A stretch of DNA of 64,000 nt from Novosphingobium sp. (GTDB lineage Bacteria > Pseudomonadota > Alphaproteobacteria > Sphingomonadales > Sphingomonadaceae), in contig NZ_JAUYNB010000031.1 of assembly GCF_030699305.1 (NCBI RefSeq), forward strand, positions 6,492-70,491. Reading direction: 5' to 3'. The notes below the pieces were generated by a model. That model was not told the origin of the DNA. It did no database searches and worked only from the letters and a program-made list of their open reading frames with translations. Each line of letters starts with the position of its first letter. The stretch's first letter is position 1. The position numbers and the translations under genes are program-made. Below are positions 4,310 through 60,120 of the stretch, piece by piece.

Positions 4310-5146
4310 GTGTTTGCCAAGACCTACCATGCCACCCATCCGGACATGATGGACTGTGTTTCGAACGATGAACTGCGCGACCGCTATCTGGTCACAGACA
4401 TGTTCCAGCCGGGCCAGGTGACGCTGAACTACAGCCACAACGAACGCTTCGTGATCGGCGGCGCGGTCCCGGGGACCGAGCCGCTGAAGCTGCCGCTCCA
4501 GACCGCACCGGCCAGCGCGGCGGGCCACACCTTCCTGGAACGCCGCGAACTGGCGGCGGTGAATATCGGCACGGCGGGCGCGATCACGGTCGATGGTCAG
4601 CGCTTCGAAATGGGCAACAAGGAATGCCTCTATATCCCGATGGGATCGCAGGACGTGACCTTCGAAGGGGCCGGCGCGCGGTTCTACCTCGCCTCGGTTC
4701 CGGCGCACAAGGCGTGCCCGGTCAGGCATATCACGCTGGCGCAGGCGAACCCGCTGGCGCGCGGCGATCTGGCCAATTCGAACCAGCGCACGATCTATCA
4801 GCTGGTCATCCCCGGCGTGTGCGAAAGCGCGCAACTGCTGCTGGGGTTGACCGTGCTGGAAGAAGGCAGCGTGTGGAACACGATGCCGCCGCACCTGCAT
4901 GACCGCCGCAGCGAGATCTACCTCTACTTCGACATGGCCGAACCGACCGACCGGGTGTTCCATTACATGGGCGAACCGGATTCGATGCGGCACCTGGTAA
5001 TCGGGAACGAGGAAGCCGTGATCAGCCCGCCGTGGTCGATCCACATGGGTTCGGGCACCAGGAAGTATGCGTTCATCTGGGCGATGGGCGGGGAAAACCT
5101 CGACTACACCGACATGAACGTCCTCGACATCTGCCAGCTGAAGTAA
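4310..5146 (+). CDS. kduI: 5-dehydro-4-deoxy-D-glucuronate isomerase
   Basis: [51 protein letters not shown]. Confidence 0.95.
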
Positions 5147-5152
5147 GCGGCC

Positions 5153-5908
5153 ATGGCAATCTCGTTTGATCTGACGGGCAAGGTGGCGCTGGTCACCGGG
5201 GCCAACACCGGCATCGGGCAGGCAATTGCGGTCGCGCTCGCCGGGGCCGGGGCAGATGTCGCGCTGGCTGGCCGGTCAGAGCCAGCGGAAACACTCGATC
5301 TGATTGCAGGAACTGGCCGTAAAGCATTGAATATCAGGGCTGATCTTTCCTCGATCGAACCGGTCGGGCGAATCGTCGCTGAAGTCGTTTCCGGGCTGGG
5401 CCGGATCGACATTCTGGTCAACAACGCCGGTATCATCCGCCGCAACGACCTTGCCGAATTTACCGAGGAAGACTGGGATGCGGTGATCGACACCAATCTC
5501 AAATCGCTGTTCTTCCTCAGTCAGGCCGCAGCCCGTCCGATGGCCGCGCAAGGCAGCGGCAAGATCATCAACATCGCCTCGCTGCTCAGCTTCCAGGGCG
5601 GCATCCGCGTCCCCAGCTATGCCGCCGCCAAATCGGGCGTTGCAGGCGTGACCAAGGCGATGGCGAACGAACTCGCGGCGCGGGGCGTGCAGGTCAACGC
5701 CATCGCGCCGGGCTATATCGCCACCAACAACACCGCCGCGCTGCAAGCGGACGAAACCCGCAATCGCCAGATCGTGGAGCGCATCCCGACCGGTCGCTGG
5801 GGCAGCCCGGATGACATCGCGGGGGCAGCCGTGTTCCTCGCCTCTGCGGCAGCGGACTATGTCACCGGCCACGTTCTGGCGGTCGACGGCGGCTGGCTGG
5901 CGCGGTAA
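5153..5908 (+). CDS. kduD: 2-dehydro-3-deoxy-D-gluconate 5-dehydrogenase
   Basis: SDR GANTGIG, NNAGIIRR, FQGGIRVPSYAAAKSG; follows kduI. Confidence 0.95.
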   Translation: MAISFDLTGKVALVTGANTGIGQAIAVALAGAGADVALAGRSEPAETLDLIAGTGRKALNIRADLSSIEPVGRIVAEVVSGLGRIDILVNNAGIIRRNDLAEFTEEDWDAVIDTNLKSLFFLSQAAARPMAAQGSGKIINIASLLSFQGGIRVPSYAAAKSGVAGVTKAMANELAARGVQVNAIAPGYIATNNTAALQADETRNRQIVERIPTGRWGSPDDIAGAAVFLASAAADYVTGHVLAVDGGWLAR

Positions 5909-13298: not shown

Positions 13299-14315
13299 AT
13301 GAAGATGGACCGCAGGTCGTTGATTGTCGCGGCATCGCTCACCGGACTGGCAGCGGGTCGCACCGGGCGGGCGGGGGCACAAACGCCTCCGCCCGTTGTG
13401 GTTCAAGGCCAATCGCGTGGTGGGCCGCCGGGCCTGCCGCAACCAGCCGAAACGGTCGATCTGTGGCCCAATGGGGCACCCGGCGTTCCGGCGGGGCTCT
13501 CCGAAATCGTGCAGGAACGCTCGACCGACGGTCTGGTCAGCGACCGGGCGGTGTGGGGGATAACCCGCCCGCGCATGGCCGTGTTCCGGCCTGACCGGCC
13601 CAATGGCGCGGCGGTGCTGCTGACGCCGGGCGGCGGCTACAAATGGGTGGTGGTGGACAAGGAGGGCTATGAACTGGGCCGCTGGCTGGCAGCGCGCGGG
13701 TTCACGGCCTTTGTCCTGTTCTATCGCCTGCCGGGTGAGGGCTGGGCGTCTGGCCCGGATACGCCGCTGGTCGATGCGCAGCGCGCGATGCGGCTGATCC
13801 GCCACCGCGCGGGCGAATACCGGATTGATCCCGAGCGCGTCGCGGCGATGGGCTTTTCCGCCGGGGGGCATGTCTGCGCCAGCCTGTCGACGCGGTTCGC
13901 GGCGCGGGTTTACGATCCGGTCGATGCGGCGGACCGGCTGTCGGCGCGCCCGCTCTGCGCCGCGCCGATCTATCCGGTGGTCAGCATGGACCCGGCCATC
14001 GCGCACATGGGATCGCGTGAAAAGCTGCTGGGCACCGCGCCCACCCCGGCCGCAGAGGCAGCCAACTCCCCGGATCGCACCGTGCCCGCCGATGCCCCGC
14101 CGCATTTCCTGCTGCATGCCGAGGATGACGATGTGGTCCCGGTCGACAACGCCCTGCGGCTCCACACCGCGCTACGGGCGCAAAAGGTGCCGGTCGAACT
14201 GCATCTGTTCGCGAACGGCGGCCACGGCTTTGGCCTGCGCAAGGCAACGGGCAAGCCGGTGGAAGTCTGGCCGGACTTGTGGCGCGGCTGGGCGCGGACC
14301 GTGGGGCTGGGCTGA
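13299..14315 (+). CDS. Alpha/beta hydrolase esterase (pectin acetylesterase-like), Tat-exported
   Basis: DRRSLIV leader, PGGGY, GFSAGG, D and HGF catalytic motifs. Confidence 0.85.
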   Translation: MKMDRRSLIVAASLTGLAAGRTGRAGAQTPPPVVVQGQSRGGPPGLPQPAETVDLWPNGAPGVPAGLSEIVQERSTDGLVSDRAVWGITRPRMAVFRPDRPNGAAVLLTPGGGYKWVVVDKEGYELGRWLAARGFTAFVLFYRLPGEGWASGPDTPLVDAQRAMRLIRHRAGEYRIDPERVAAMGFSAGGHVCASLSTRFAARVYDPVDAADRLSARPLCAAPIYPVVSMDPAIAHMGSREKLLGTAPTPAAEAANSPDRTVPADAPPHFLLHAEDDDVVPVDNALRLHTALRAQKVPVELHLFANGGHGFGLRKATGKPVEVWPDLWRGWARTVGLG

Positions 14316-15895
14316 TGGAGCGGCGCGACCTGCTGAAGCTGGCGGGGGCCGCTCCGGTGGTGCTGGGGACCGCTCCCGCATTGACCCACCCAGCGTCTCG
14401 CGCCGCACGCGGGACCGAGCGGCAACGCCAGCCGGACCTTGGCAATGGCACGTTCCTCAACCCCGTGCTGTCCGGCGACCGGCCCGATCCGGCGATCCTG
14501 AAGGACGGGGACAACTATTACCTGACCTTTTCCAGCTTCGATGCCTATCCGGGGCTGACGATCTGGCATTCGCGCGATCTGGTGAACTGGCAGCCGCGCG
14601 GGCCGGCGCTGACCCGCAACATCGGCTCGGTCTGGGCGGTCAGCCTGGAAAAGCATCGCGGGCGCTACTTCCTCTACATTCCGGTCAAGGCGGAACGCAA
14701 CGATACCTTCGTGATCTGGGCCGATCAGATCGACGGGCCGTGGAGCGATCCGGTGCCGCTGGGCCTGCCGCGCCATATCGATCCGTGCCATGCCGTGGGT
14801 GAGGATGGCTCGCGCTGGCTGTTCCTGTCGGGCGGAGATCGGGTGCGGCTGGCAGTTGATGGCCTGAGCCTCGCAGGGCCGGTCGAGCATGTCTATGATC
14901 CATGGCGTTATCCCGACACGTGGGATGTCGAAGGGTTCGCGCCGGAGGGGCCGAAGATCCATCGCCGGGGCGGCTGGTTCTATCTGGTCACAGCCGTTGG
15001 CGGCACGGCGGGACCGCCGACCGGGCATATGGTGATCGCGGCGCGCTCCCGCTCCATCCACGGGCCGTGGCAGCAACATCCCGGCAACCCGCTGGTGCGG
15101 ACGCAATCGGCGGGCGAGGCGTGGTGGTCACGCGGGCACGCGTCGCTGGTTGAAGCACCGGATGGCAGCTGGTGGTCGCTCTATCACGGCTATGAGGCGG
15201 GGTTCTGGACGCTGGGGCGGCAGTGCCTGCTTGATCCGGTGGAATGGACCGCCGACGGCTGGTTCCGGATGAAGGGCGGCGATCTGTCGCGGCCCTTGCG
15301 CAAGCCGCGCGGCGGACAGGCGTTGGCGCACGGAATGGCGCTGTCGGATGATTTTTCAGCGCCGCTGCGCCTCGGCAGCAAGTGGTGCTTTTTCCGGCCT
15401 GCTGCGGATGAGACCCGGCGGGTGCGGGTGGAAGGCGGCGCGCTGCACCTTGCGGGCAAGGGGCTGGCCCCGTCGAGCGGATCGCCCTTGCTGCTCACAG
15501 CGGGTGATACTTCTTACCGGTTTGAATGCGATATCGAACTGGCACCGGGCGGAACAGCGGGGCTGGTGCTGTTTTACGACGACAAGCTTTACGCCGGGCT
15601 GGGGTTTGATGAACAGCGCTTCGTCACGCATCAATACGGGATTGAGCGGGCGCGTCCGGTCAATCCGCACGGGCGGCGGATGAAGCTGCGCATCACCAAC
15701 CGGCGGCATATCGTGGCGATCCATACCAGCGGTGATGGCGGCTTGACGTGGCAGCGATTCGACCGGGGGATGGAAGTATCCGGTTATCACCACAACGTGC
15801 GCGGCGGGTTCCTGGCGCTGCGACCGGGGCTATACGCCGCCGGACCCGGCCAAGCGACGTTCCGTGACTTCCGCTACAGCGCTCTGGACGATTGA
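14315..15895 (+). CDS. Glycoside hydrolase family 43 with C-terminal beta-sandwich, Tat-exported
   Basis: ERRDLLKL leader, NPVLSGDRPDPAI, HSRDLVNW, IDP, PEGP, GHASLV; TGATG coupling. Confidence 0.92.
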   Translation: MERRDLLKLAGAAPVVLGTAPALTHPASRAARGTERQRQPDLGNGTFLNPVLSGDRPDPAILKDGDNYYLTFSSFDAYPGLTIWHSRDLVNWQPRGPALTRNIGSVWAVSLEKHRGRYFLYIPVKAERNDTFVIWADQIDGPWSDPVPLGLPRHIDPCHAVGEDGSRWLFLSGGDRVRLAVDGLSLAGPVEHVYDPWRYPDTWDVEGFAPEGPKIHRRGGWFYLVTAVGGTAGPPTGHMVIAARSRSIHGPWQQHPGNPLVRTQSAGEAWWSRGHASLVEAPDGSWWSLYHGYEAGFWTLGRQCLLDPVEWTADGWFRMKGGDLSRPLRKPRGGQALAHGMALSDDFSAPLRLGSKWCFFRPAADETRRVRVEGGALHLAGKGLAPSSGSPLLLTAGDTSYRFECDIELAPGGTAGLVLFYDDKLYAGLGFDEQRFVTHQYGIERARPVNPHGRRMKLRITNRRHIVAIHTSGDGGLTWQRFDRGMEVSGYHHNVRGGFLALRPGLYAAGPGQATFRDFRYSALDD

Positions 15896-16015: not shown

Positions 16016-16050
16016 ACCCCCGTGCAAATCTTGCGCGGGGGTTCCTTTTT
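16016..16050 (+). terminator. Rho-independent terminator
   Basis: ACCCCCGTGCAA-ATC-TTGCGCGGGGGT stem then TCCTTTTT. Confidence 0.75.
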
Positions 16051-16850
16051 CAGCCCCGTGCGGCTGTTTCCAGCTTTTCGCCGGTGATTGGATAGCCTGC
16101 ATCGGCGTCGATCTTGAGCCACGGCTCGCCGTTTTCCAGTTCCATGAACGGGGTAATCATCCGCACCGGATGATCGGCCACATGTGTCACCGCGTCATCG
16201 AAAGTGCCGAACAGCGCCAGCCGTTCCAGATTGCGGCGGGTGGGGAAGATCACCTTGATCTGGCCCTGTTCAGCCAGATCCAGCGCCCCGGCTGCACTGG
16301 CCCAGAACAAGTGCGTGTTTTCGGTATCGTCGACCAGCAGTTCGACCGCCCCGGTGCCCAGATCGGCCAGATAGAAGCGGGTGTCGAATACGCGCACTTC
16401 GCGGTGCTTGGGGCGCCAGCGGGCAAACGGCACCAACCGCTCAAGATCCAGGGTCCAGCCCATCGCGTCCAGCACCGGGGCGAGTTCGCCCTGTTCGAGC
16501 AGCAGCGCGCGGGCGCGCAGGGCGTCTTCCAGACTGGGGCGTTGGTGAACGCCGACGGCCAGGCCGGTTTCCTCCAGCGTTTCGCGCACGGCGGCAATCC
16601 GCGCGGCGAGTTCATCGCGGGAATCGTCACCCGCCGCGCCAAGGGCATCCGCCAGCGCAAAGTCGGCATCGTCCACGCGCCCGCCGGGGAACACTGCCGC
16701 GCCGCCGGCAAAGCGCATCTGCTTCGAGCGCTGGACCATCAGGAGTTCAGGCGGACCGCCATCGGGCGCGTTGCGGAAAATGACCAGCGTGGCGGCCGGG
16801 GTGGCTGGCGGCGGTTCGCCGCTCGTGTCGAAAATATCTGCAATGTCCAT
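16050..16850 (-). CDS. NUDIX hydrolase
   Basis: PAATLVI, FPGGRVD, AAVRETLEETG Nudix box, FDTRFY. Confidence 0.9.
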   Translation of the reverse strand: MDIADIFDTSGEPPPATPAATLVIFRNAPDGGPPELLMVQRSKQMRFAGGAAVFPGGRVDDADFALADALGAAGDDSRDELAARIAAVRETLEETGLAVGVHQRPSLEDALRARALLLEQGELAPVLDAMGWTLDLERLVPFARWRPKHREVRVFDTRFYLADLGTGAVELLVDDTENTHLFWASAAGALDLAEQGQIKVIFPTRRNLERLALFGTFDDAVTHVADHPVRMITPFMELENGEPWLKIDADAGYPITGEKLETAARG

Positions 16851-16999
16851 CTTGCGCCGCACCGTGCAGGGGGGAAGCGGCTTTGCCAAGGGGCTTTCCC
16901 ATCATTTTATCGCATTGCCTGTCGGCCAGTTTTACAATCGCCGATTGCGGTATCCGGGCTGCCTTGGCCAAAGTGCTGAAAAATAAGCGGCTGATGGAT

Positions 17000-17016
17000 T
17001 TGGCACGGTCAATGCA
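17000..17016 (+). promoter_or_regulatory. Sigma54 (-24/-12) promoter
   Basis: TTGGCACGGTCAATGCA with exact GG-N10-GC spacing; upstream palindrome CAATCG-C-CGATTG (16935-16947) and AT-rich tract. Confidence 0.7.
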
Positions 17017-17026
17017 TATAAGTTTG

Positions 17027-17230
17027 CACCCAAGCAGTCTCGACTGAGGCGGGGCCGCTTCTGGTCTCCGCAGCCCCGCCTCCCCGAGAACTTTGGTTCC
17101 CCACATCCGCAAGCTGGAACGCAGCCGCCCTCAAAGCAGCCGCCTCAACGCAGCCATTCGTGTCAGCCGCGTGGCCGATTCATGTCAGCGCATACGAAAA
17201 AGGCCCCCCGCGCGGCGGGAGGCCTTGTTG
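17027..17230 (+). ncRNA. Candidate sigma54-dependent small RNA
   Basis: Downstream of the -24/-12 promoter; 10-bp stem 17046-17082, repeated CAGCC units, ends in a hairpin; no credible ORF/RBS. Confidence 0.45.
17197..17230. terminator. Terminator hairpin (clear U-tract on - strand for grxD; weak on +)
   Basis: AAAAAGGCCCCCCGC-GCG-GCGGGAGGCCTTGTT. Confidence 0.75.
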
Positions 17231-17249
17231 TCGGGTCGGCGGGGCCGGA

Positions 17250-17579
17250 TCAGTTGGCGGAAGCCACGCCCGCGTCAGTGACCAGCTGCTGCAATTCGCC
17301 CGCTTCGAACATTTCCATCATGATGTCGCTGCCGCCCACGAACTCACCCTTCACGTAAAGCTGGGGGATGGTCGGCCAGTCGGAGAATGACTTGATGCCC
17401 TGACGGATTTCCATGTCCTGCAACACGTCCACGCTTTCATAGCTGACGCCAAGGTGATCGAGGATCGCGATTGCCTTGCTGGAAAAACCGCACTGCGGGA
17501 ACAGCGGGGTTCCCTTCATGAACAGCACCACATCGTTGGTGCCCACGATATCGGCGATGCGCTGGTTGGAATCGGACAT
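17250..17579 (-). CDS. grxD: Monothiol glutaredoxin Grx4
   Basis: [33 protein letters not shown]. Confidence 0.96.
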
Positions 17580-17836: not shown

Positions 17837-18160
17837 TCAGGCCTCGCCCATCAGCGCGCGTTTGGCTTCCACGGTTTTGGCTTCCAGCGCGGCGCGGACA
17901 TCGGCATCGCTGATGTCGACCCCGGCCGAAACCAGATCGCCCAGCAGCTTGCGGATTACGTCTTCATCGCCCGATTCCTCAAAATCAGCCTGAACGACGG
18001 CCTTGGCATAGCCTTCGGTTTCGACGGCGGAGAGGCCCATCTTTTCGGCAGCCCACTGGCCGAGCAGACGGTTGCGGCGGGCGGTGATGCGGAAATGCAT
18101 TTCGCCGTCGTGGGCAAACTTGGCTTCTTCAGCGCGTTCACGGTCGTTGAAATTGGTCAT
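17837..18160 (-). CDS. DUF1476-type protein
   Basis: FNDRERAEEAKFAHD, ARRNRLLGQWAAEKMG. Confidence 0.85.
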   Translation of the reverse strand: MTNFNDRERAEEAKFAHDGEMHFRITARRNRLLGQWAAEKMGLSAVETEGYAKAVVQADFEESGDEDVIRKLLGDLVSAGVDISDADVRAALEAKTVEAKRALMGEA

Positions 18161-26372: not shown

Positions 26373-26389
26373 CGCAAAGGGCGTGCCAA
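26373..26389 (-). promoter_or_regulatory. Sigma54 promoter of the psp operon
   Basis: Minus strand TTGGCACGCCCTTTGCG, consensus -24/-12; divergent from pspF. Confidence 0.9.
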
Positions 26390-26488: not shown

Positions 26489-27523
26489 ATGGAGCGTGAT
26501 GTTCAGTTCATTGGCCAGTCCACGGCCTTCCTCGATGCGGTGGAGCGGGCCAGCCGCGCTGCGCCGATGCGCCGCCCGGTGCTGGTGATCGGGGAGCGTG
26601 GAACCGGCAAGGAACTGATCGCCGAACGCCTGCACCGCCTGTCGCCGCGCTGGGGCGAGCCGCTCGTCACGCTGAATTGCGCGGCGCTGCCGGAAACGCT
26701 GATCGAGGCGGAGCTGTTCGGTCATGAGCAAGGGGCCTTTACCGGCGCTACCAGAGCACGGGCCGGGCGGTTCGAGGAAGCCGACAAAGGCACGTTGTTC
26801 CTCGACGAACTGGCGACGCTGTCGATGGGCGCGCAGGAACGCCTGCTGCGCGCGGTCGAATATGGCGAAGTAACGCGGATCGGATCGTCGCGCGCGATCC
26901 GGGTTGACGTGCGGATCGTGGCTGCCACCAACGAAGACCTGCCCCGCATGGCCGATCAGGGCCGGTTCCGCGCCGACCTGCTCGACCGGCTGAGTTTCGA
27001 GGTCATCACGCTGCCGCCGCTGCGGGTGCGCGAAGGGGATATTCACGTGCTGGCCGAGTACTTTGGCCGCCGCATGGCAACCGAGCTGGACTGGGAACGC
27101 TGGCCCGGCTTTTCCGACCATGCCTTGCACGCGCTGGAGGATTATCAGTGGCCGGGCAACGTGCGCGAACTGCGCAACGTGGTGGAACGCGCGGTCTATC
27201 GCTGGGGCGATGCGGAAACGCCGATCGCGCATATCCAGTTCAACCCGTTCGAAAGCCCGTGGAAACCGGAGTCGTTCGCAGTGGTGCGCAGCGAGGATCG
27301 GCCTACTTTTCATCCCGCGCCCGAACCGACGTCAAAACCGGCGCAGGACCTGGATTCGGTTTCAGACCTGCGCGCGGCAGTGGATGCCCACGAAAAGGCG
27401 ATCCTGGAACAGGCGCTGGGCCGCAACCGCTATAATCAGCGTCAGACGGCCAGGGCGCTGGGCGTCAGCTATGACCAGCTGCGCCATGCGATGAAGAAGC
27501 ATGGCCTGATGGATCGGAGCTGA
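26489..27523 (+). CDS. pspF: Phage shock operon sigma54 activator
   Basis: GERGTGKE Walker A, GAFTGA, FLDE, WPGNVRELRN, C-terminal HTH; no receiver domain. Confidence 0.94.
   Translation: MERDVQFIGQSTAFLDAVERASRAAPMRRPVLVIGERGTGKELIAERLHRLSPRWGEPLVTLNCAALPETLIEAELFGHEQGAFTGATRARAGRFEEADKGTLFLDELATLSMGAQERLLRAVEYGEVTRIGSSRAIRVDVRIVAATNEDLPRMADQGRFRADLLDRLSFEVITLPPLRVREGDIHVLAEYFGRRMATELDWERWPGFSDHALHALEDYQWPGNVRELRNVVERAVYRWGDAETPIAHIQFNPFESPWKPESFAVVRSEDRPTFHPAPEPTSKPAQDLDSVSDLRAAVDAHEKAILEQALGRNRYNQRQTARALGVSYDQLRHAMKKHGLMDRS

Positions 27524-56755: not shown

Positions 56756-60120
<3,365 letters not shown>

Follow-up and report, generated by a model that had tools for sequence, protein, structure and literature searches.

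Small non-coding RNAs (sRNAs) made from sigma-54-dependent promoters are known from several bacteria. Sponge RNAs of this kind exist, such as CrcZ and GlmY; CrcZ and CrcY of Pseudomonas depend on sigma-54 together with CbrB, and GlmY of Enterobacteria on sigma-54 together with GlrR/QseF. Qrr1–5 of Vibrio (sigma-54 and LuxO) and NrsZ of Pseudomonas (sigma-54 and NtrC) are short RNAs that act in trans, require activation of sigma-54 by a phosphorylated enhancer-binding protein for their synthesis and carry a conserved unpaired seed in a stem-loop, and MmgR (alpha-r8) of Sinorhizobium is an NtrC-influenced alphaproteobacterial sRNA. Sphingomonads are important degraders of aromatics and lignin-derived compounds, and to our knowledge the regulatory RNAs of this group have hardly been studied. 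According to a 2025 preprint (10.64898/2025.12.09.693200), no sRNA other than SuhB had so far been characterised in Sphingopyxis granuli TFA. Here we analysed a 64-kb stretch of DNA from Novosphingobium sp. (contig NZ_JAUYNB010000031.1; the whole stretch is referred to as the window), in which a 399-bp intergenic region (16851–17249), flanked by a NUDIX-domain gene on one side and grxD on the other, houses a sigma-54-type promoter and a hairpin. Comparison with related loci makes it very probable that a sigma-54-dependent non-coding RNA is produced here and that its functional unit is the hairpin. The element is best classed as a putative new sRNA family that is conserved in Novosphingobium and related sphingomonads and belongs to a known kind of regulator, the sRNAs that depend on sigma-54. 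On balance, we favour the complete account, in which a sigma-54-transcribed small non-coding RNA gene yields a hairpin product that acts in trans. The unit has the following parts.

16920–16936, + strand: conserved upstream site TGTCGG-N5-TTTACA (a TGT-N11-ACA dyad), a candidate upstream activator site (UAS)
16970–16999, no strand assigned: A/T-rich stretch between the UAS and the promoter, possibly a bending or IHF-type region
17000–17016, + strand: sigma-54-type −24/−12 promoter TTGGCACGGTCAATGCA, with GG at 17002–17003 and GC at 17014–17015
17028–17092, + strand: conserved predicted RNA core of ~65 nt, with the 5′ tail ACCC(CC)AAGCA
17037–17042 with 17085–17091, + strand: outer helix of 4–6 bp, GUCUCG/CGAGA-C
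17046–17058 with 17070–17082, + strand: inner 13-bp GC helix, 12 of 13 positions paired, with a C17056/A17072 mismatch
17059–17069, + strand: apical loop UUCUGGUCUCC, which contains the near-invariant GUCUCC

The locus resembles CrcZ and CrcY in being a unit without an open reading frame (ORF) that has a −24/−12 promoter and an upstream activator site, but it matches no Rfam family, lacks repeated A-rich motifs and is conserved in a single hairpin. Its upstream site also differs from the CbrB dyad, which has the consensus TGTTAC-N12-GTAACA. With GlmY it shares the sigma-54-driven synthesis of a small RNA and an upstream site starting with TGTC. GlrR sites, however, read TGTC-N10-GACA, whereas the one site here, TGTC-N9-TACA, is one base shorter and asymmetric, and there is neither an Rfam match nor a link to glmS. 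Qrr and NrsZ RNAs are built from several stem-loops plus a terminator, in contrast to the one long hairpin of this locus, and their Rfam models do not match it. MmgR, too, comes from Alphaproteobacteria and is connected with the pathway of an enhancer-binding protein; it differs in structure and genomic context, again with no Rfam match. A further likeness, to CcsR/alpha-r14 (CCUCCUCCC) of Alphaproteobacteria and to RsaE/RoxS of Firmicutes, is a mechanistic conjecture only and concerns C-rich unpaired motifs. At this locus, these are the loop (..CCUGGUCUCC) and the tails ACCCCC and CUUCCCC, which could mask G-rich ribosome-binding sites. The sigma-54 promoter, a different motif, the presence of one copy per genome and the lack of a match to the alpha-r models in Rfam set the locus apart from that group.

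Searches of Rfam 15 with the window, the intergenic region and six related loci returned no family at the gathering score except tRNAs. At E ≤ 10, there were only chance matches to GC hairpins, with the CrcZ, Qrr, GlmY/GlmZ, NrsZ and alpha-r models unmatched. A literature search found no description of the hairpin element.

Chance statistics of single features are unremarkable in the window, where −24/−12 matches with at most one mismatch number 2 against 2.6 expected. The significance of the element rests entirely on its conservation in relatives. Our comparison set comprised 80 loci around NUDIX homologues with 63–92% identity to the NUDIX of the window, the closest relatives being L001 and L002 at 92% each. 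Positions 17001–17016 of the window read TGGCACGGTCAATGCA, one mismatch away from TGGCAC-N5-TTGCW, and YTGGCACG-N4-NTGCA recurs in ~70 of the 75 loci with upstream DNA. Across these loci, GG and GC are fixed (GG-N10-GC) and the spacer is free, a pattern that, as far as conservation can tell, marks a working sigma-54 promoter. The distance from the promoter to the NUDIX start is 136–167 bp, with 218 bp in one locus.

The upstream site TGTCGG-N5-TTTACA moves with the promoter. Its start lies 81 bp upstream of TGGCAC in 57 of 75 loci, 82 bp in 17 and 83 bp in one, within the ~80–150 bp usual for activator sites of sigma-54 promoters; its distance to the NUDIX start varies among loci. It is a candidate UAS for an enhancer-binding protein, and a search of 1.25 Mb of sequence found no other promoter in which this site is combined with a −24/−12 element. 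The stretch in between is A/T-rich, with an A+T fraction of 0.56–0.66 in the 40 bp before the promoter compared with 0.25–0.46 further upstream (81 promoter-anchored sequences); the composition is kept in all loci, although the sequence itself is not conserved. Together, the upstream site, the bendable spacer and the −24/−12 element form what is, to judge from the alignments, a classical sigma-54 enhancer architecture, with activation predicted to proceed via DNA looping. One locus, L055 (~700–800), has kept the hairpin and the GG/GC promoter (CTGGCATAACGCCAGCA) and has lost the upstream site.

The predicted +1 is A17028, 12–13 nt past the −12 GC, and the conserved block starts exactly there. 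Its consensus is tACCCCCAAGCAGUCUCGAAUGAGGCGGGGCCGC-aCCCUGGUCUCC-GCGGyCCCGCCUCCCCGAGaac, and conservation ends sharply at ~17092, matching the 3′ end of the outer helix. Median identity to the window is 85% for the core and 57%, or background, for the next 65 nt, compared with 81% for grxD coding DNA and 76% for NUDIX coding DNA. A covariance model of the hairpin (R1), derived from the alignment, detected a single copy in the window (17020–17097; 81.8 bits on the + strand versus 27.8 bits on the − strand) and found the element in 76 of the 77 loci with upstream DNA. The sole loss was L020, where the gap between grxD and NUDIX measures only 148 bp and the whole element is gone. A weak partial match at 56785–56830 of the window (11.6 bits, E = 0.33) is most likely due to chance.

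Folding of the core gives a single long hairpin with interruptions (−31.9 kcal/mol, z = −3.3). In an alignment that consists of closely related sequences, 97.9% of the cells of the whole structure are paired, compared with 44–53% in slid controls; double-sided changes occur in 6 pairs (14 cells), and none of 500 shuffles matched the observed covariation. The inner helix is 99% paired and shows double-sided changes in five pairs, GGGGCC/GGCCCC being replaced, for example, by GGAGCC/GGCUCC, GGCGCC/GGCGCC or GGGGAC/GUCCCC. The outer helix is 93% paired among the loci, and distant members covary between GUCUUCG/CGAAGAC and AUCUUCG/CGAAGAU. On the + strand the alignment holds 46 G-U cells; two positions alternate between G-U and G-C, one in 34 sequences and the other in 12. 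Read from the opposite strand, such cells would turn into A-C mismatches, which places the RNA on the + strand. Across the relatives we found no conserved + strand ORF or start codon; the only recurrent ATG, in CGAATGAGG, is seen in half of the sequences and is CTG, TAG or ACG in the others.

An earlier note on this DNA had described an ORF-less, sigma-54-type + strand unit, and this outline agrees with the comparative data. The −24/−12 element at 17000–17016 is present, with the one mismatch given above, and conserved; the absence of a conserved + strand ORF holds; and a start near 17027–17028 would fit the conserved block. The A/T-rich tract that the note had listed exists as well, at ~16970–16986. 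The palindrome CAATCG-C-CGATTG (16935–16947) is present and abuts the conserved site TGTCGG-N5-TTTACA, but is not itself conserved in relatives. The GC stem at 17046–17082, paired at 12 of 13 positions, had been noted in passing as a stem of 10 bp, yet it is the conserved part and hence probably the functional one. Two checks named in the note also turned out in its favour: covariation across related loci yielded compensatory and G-U changes in the hairpin, on the + strand, and the lack of an Rfam family match fits an unannotated RNA.

The element extends beyond NUDIX-linked loci. A scan of metagenomes with a loose pattern gave at least 120 stretches, mostly noise, and the covariance model accepted seven among the matches listed. 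These seven distant members (34–53 bits) keep the promoter and both helices, and they keep the upstream site wherever the upstream sequence suffices (the L195 contig holds only ~60 nt upstream). Their loop still has GUCUCC and is lengthened in some. In L158, the genes leuD, zeta, bolA and grxD are followed by an RNA convergent on grxD, and the divergent neighbour is a beta-etherase gene, not NUDIX. Since these members have kept the element, its upstream site included, in otherwise diverged sequence, the hairpin family is, by this comparison, wider than the NUDIX-linked Novosphingobium clade, and it stays tied to the grxD 3′ end. The window (17837–18160) and the distant sphingomonad contig L158 (9821–11394) agree in their gene order: leuD, ATPase-inhibitor zeta subunit, bolA, grxD. 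The RNA gene always lies directly beyond the grxD stop codon, except where a GGDEF-EAL gene intervenes. The nearest public loci are those of Novosphingobium metagenome-assembled genomes and N. arvoryzae, and identical sequence is present in groundwater metagenomes. Cultured species that carry the element include N. arvoryzae KCTC 32422 (L002), N. kunmingense CGMCC 1.12274 (L061) and N. aquiterrae (L047).

This GGDEF-EAL gene (750–810 aa; cyclic di-GMP turnover) lies on the RNA strand with the hairpin on one side and grxD on the other, 150–250 nt past the hairpin, in 41 of 72 typed loci and is absent in 31, the window included. Both arrangements interleave in NUDIX-based clusters, with 14 of 67 nearest neighbours being of the opposite type, and L048 keeps the upstream block of GGDEF-EAL without the gene, as a scar. 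The interleaving and the scar together indicate that the gene has been lost repeatedly and that promoter and hairpin were spared each time. The hairpin model scores a median of 87 bits in gene-less loci and 93 bits in gene-containing loci, and the gene-less lineages L064, L068 and L037 show compensatory changes in the hairpin. Repeated loss of the gene with retention of the hairpin argues that the hairpin RNA would work on its own and not merely as a leader. No GGDEF-EAL remnants were found in 17093–17199 of the window, where the single tblastn match was an artefact of an over-extended ORF through the hairpin.

In type-B loci (L030, L017, L007 and others), at 60–110 nt past the hairpin, and in L048, there is a conserved block that reads GGTCAAT-N7-CTAAC-N6-AAAGCGTTTCTTCA (variant ..GCTAAGCATTCCTTGAC..). 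It fronts GGDEF-EAL, has a spacing unfit for a sigma-70 promoter and matches nothing in Rfam; an operator is one possible reading and a small RNA stem (AACGC..GCGTT) another.

Downstream of the core, the window contains the following.

17093–17199, + strand: non-conserved spacer that may prolong the transcript at its 3′ end in this genome
17121–17155, + strand: 14-nt tandem repeat (Tandem Repeats Finder, period 14, 2.4 copies)
17122, 17137, 17151 and 17164, + strand: CAGCC units, four within 47 nt, formed by the tandem repeat plus one extra copy
17200–17226, − strand: intrinsic terminator of grxD, a 12-bp stem followed by TTTTCGT, common to L001 and L002

The earlier note had centred on the CAGCC units, taking them for the binding motifs of a protein sponge. 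All four units are there, as is GCAGCCGCC, which it had seen twice. Of its two expectations about relatives, however, conservation of the promoter was borne out (~70 of 75 loci) and conservation of the repeats was not, as they occur in no relative. The repeats are thus lineage-specific, found only in this genome, and the conserved core has one loop motif, which leaves the proposed sponge without a conserved basis. After 17092, the region is unalignable even to L001 and L002, which past the hairpin have only the grxD terminator hairpin in common with the window, ~100 nt in between being unrelated. In the window, GCAGCCGCC is found 5 times against 3.6 expected, CAGCC occurs ~200 times per strand, and comparable 5-mer clusters number 9. 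A long RNA (17028–17236) would have an unremarkable fold (z = −1.4) with nothing beyond the two hairpins. We infer that the CAGCC region is a neutral, lineage-specific spacer without a role.

The terminal hairpin that the note had described as shared with grxD is present at 17200–17226. Its + strand tail, TTGTTGTC, is weak and U-poor, much as the note had said of the U-tract; it is possibly a weak bidirectional terminator that would give a + strand RNA of ~200 nt. Gene-less L008, L016, L059 and L064 have clean bidirectional terminators 20–60 nt past the hairpin, with good U-tracts on the RNA strand. In most species, the tail past the hairpin is C-rich (..GAGAACUUCCCC), as would suit the loading of Rho and a subsequent shortening of the RNA to the helix.

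Several other explanations have to be weighed against a trans-acting sRNA. The promoter and hairpin could be the 5′ leader of the GGDEF-EAL gene, left as a functionless relic in the window after deletion of the gene. This would agree with the same-strand GGDEF-EAL gene after the hairpin in 41 of 72 typed loci, with the lack of a consistent terminator between the two and with the slightly lower model scores in gene-less loci (87 versus 93 bits median), and the L048 scar shows that deletions occur. We nevertheless regard it as improbable. Promoter, upstream site and hairpin are intact in the 31 gene-less loci of several interleaved clades, and compensatory changes are found inside gene-less lineages (L064, L068 and L037). 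The distant grxD-adjacent members L096 and L158 are without GGDEF-EAL altogether, the element has been lost in one locus only (L020), and GGDEF-EAL has its own conserved upstream block. Very improbable is a cis-acting antisense role, in which the sigma-54 transcript would read through the weak + strand terminator into the convergent grxD–bolA operon and interfere with its expression. In its favour, every gene-less or distant locus, like the window, has the unit converging on grxD, few U residues follow the shared hairpin on the + strand, and the hairpin lies only 30–40 nt from the grxD stop codon in L021, L067 and L074. Yet a 2.3-kb gene parts the unit from grxD in 41 loci, the gene-less loci L008, L016, L064 and L059 have clean bidirectional terminators, and antisense interference leaves the conservation of a specific 65-nt hairpin with its loop unexplained.

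Extremely improbable, in our view, is that the inverted repeat acts as DNA (a dimer operator or a cruciform) or as − strand RNA (a far 5′ leader of NUDIX or the 3′ untranslated region of grxD), with the −24/−12 element being incidental. It draws on two observations that also belong among the points weighing against an sRNA. The lower 7 bp of the helix (GAGGCGG/CCGCCUC) are invariant, hence structurally uninformative, and a constraint at the DNA level or from protein recognition is possible there; and the C-A mismatch of the window copy (17056/17072) would be a G-U pair on the − strand. Against it, the spacing of the arms ranges from 9 to ~26 nt, which suits a loop but not a dimer site, and the loop is asymmetric and conserved. 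Moreover, the 46 G-U cells on the + strand compare with a handful of C-A cells, promoter and upstream site are kept together, with fixed spacing and in the + orientation, and the flanking genes are interchangeable (NUDIX or beta-etherase; grxD or GGDEF-EAL). The remaining points on the negative side concern the partners, the ends and the expression of the RNA. Neither rpoN nor the cognate activator is encoded in the 64-kb window. An intrinsic terminator is not conserved: of 28 gene-less loci put through a crude scan, only 7 had one on the RNA strand, and in the others the positions were inconsistent. Complementarity of the loop to the GGDEF-EAL leader is no better than for shuffled sequence, and no target was found in the sequence analysed. 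In public runs, the metatranscriptome and metagenome contigs with the core span the promoter or break at the limits of conservation, where strains diverge, showing neither a start site nor expression. As for a CrcZ-like sponge, in which the CAGCC units would titrate an RNA-binding protein, four CAGCC within 47 nt behind a sigma-54 promoter with no ORF do recall the sigma-54-dependent precedents CrcZ and GlmY. Its probability is close to negligible, given that tandem repetition (14 nt, 2.4 copies) and one extra copy account for the units, that the pentamer (~200 per strand) and clusters like it (9) are common in the window, that the repeats recur in no relative and their region is unalignable to the closest ones, that this region is without notable structure, and that the Rfam models of CrcZ, Qrr and GlmY do not match.

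For the trans-acting sRNA that we favour, an enhancer-binding protein other than the PspF encoded in the window would turn the promoter on upon a signal. The functional product would be the 5′ hairpin RNA of ~65 nt. Its 3′ end may be formed by factor-dependent termination in the C-rich tail followed by trimming to the stable helix or, in this genome, by the terminator at 17200–17226, giving ~200 nt. Acting in trans, the RNA would use its invariant loop GGUCUCC and its C-rich tails to pair with G-rich ribosome-binding regions of messenger RNAs. Because this loop and these tails resemble an anti-Shine–Dalgarno sequence, translational control by base pairing is the mode of action we favour, and base pairing through the loop is put forward here as a tentative possibility. 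Along a less likely route, the hairpin, with its invariant helix and loop, would bind a protein. Where GGDEF-EAL follows directly downstream, transcription from this promoter may extend into it.

Use of sigma-54 by this organism is indicated elsewhere in the window by two features.

26373–26389, − strand: second sigma-54 promoter TTGGCACGCCCTTTGCG, in front of a pspA-containing ORF
26498–27523, + strand: pspF, divergent from this second −24/−12 promoter

The pspF gene scores 490 bits against a curated cut-off of 443 (NCBIfam), and its presence together with its own −24/−12 promoter indicates that sigma-54 is used. An inverted repeat between pspF and its promoter, TTCCCAA..TTGGGAA, is likely to be the PspF site. 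The ORF running from 26335 to 25253 corresponds to PspA/IM30 in its C-terminal two thirds, after ~130 residues that resemble a membrane protein of small size; either a fusion or two separate genes could explain it. We considered PspF as the activator of the hairpin promoter and found this unlikely: PspF-type promoters carry another upstream repeat (TTCCCAA..TTGGGAA, AGTTGGGAAA..CCAACT), so PspF is probably not the protein in question. Another conserved sigma-54 promoter, with the upstream repeat AGTTGGGAAAATTCACCAACT and a small leader hairpin, occurs in ~28 loci (L012 at ~4850–5350 on the − strand, and ~27 others). The genes behind it encode a small membrane protein and a PspC-domain protein, and they lie downstream of NUDIX, a tRNA gene and a gene for a 252-aa multi-pass membrane protein. 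At the syntenic site, the window has a different gene (ORF 14279–15895).

The immediate neighbours of the RNA unit are these.

16050–16850, − strand: NUDIX-domain gene (Pfam NUDIX), its start facing the intergenic region
16855–16892, − strand: probable promoter and leader of the NUDIX gene, conserved CTTGGCAAA; on the + strand, TTTGCCAAG at 16882–16890
17250–17579, − strand: grxD (Grx4 family, 152 bits versus a cut-off of 117), its end facing the intergenic region

Past grxD, the window continues with bolA and then the ATPase-inhibitor zeta-subunit gene. The TTTGCCAAG block is kept ~35 nt before the NUDIX ATG in relatives, its distance to the sigma-54 promoter varies, and it is missing in L158, the divergent gene of which is not NUDIX. 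The block tracks the NUDIX gene and not the sigma-54 promoter; it therefore probably serves as the promoter of NUDIX, with TTGGCA on the − strand and only a very short leader, and is separate from the RNA unit. A 13-nt tandem repeat of 2.1 copies (16875–16901) includes TTTGCCAAG.

For the reading of DNA from its letters alone, this locus holds a caution: what evolution has kept is the plain-looking GC stem, and the repeats that strike the eye are noise. What emerges is a sharply defined RNA gene, with a predicted promoter, a candidate activator site and a structured product of 65 nt. The conserved upstream site would offer a direct handle on the sigma-54 activator and its signal, and the losses of GGDEF-EAL form a natural series arguing that the RNA functions alone. 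L020, which has lost the element, and L055, which has lost the upstream site, are natural variants useful for functional comparison. A more far-reaching proposal, which we consider speculative and rather unlikely, is that an enhancer-binding-protein pathway common to Novosphingobium and other sphingomonads has this hairpin RNA as its dedicated output. The invariant helix and loop would be recognised sequence-specifically, through anti-Shine–Dalgarno mimicry or as a protein ligand, and the RNA would couple a signal to cyclic di-GMP turnover (by way of GGDEF-EAL, the gene repeatedly seen behind it) or to redox and iron–sulfur homeostasis (grxD–bolA). If this is true, the element would represent a new RNA family with a new pairing of regulator and RNA.

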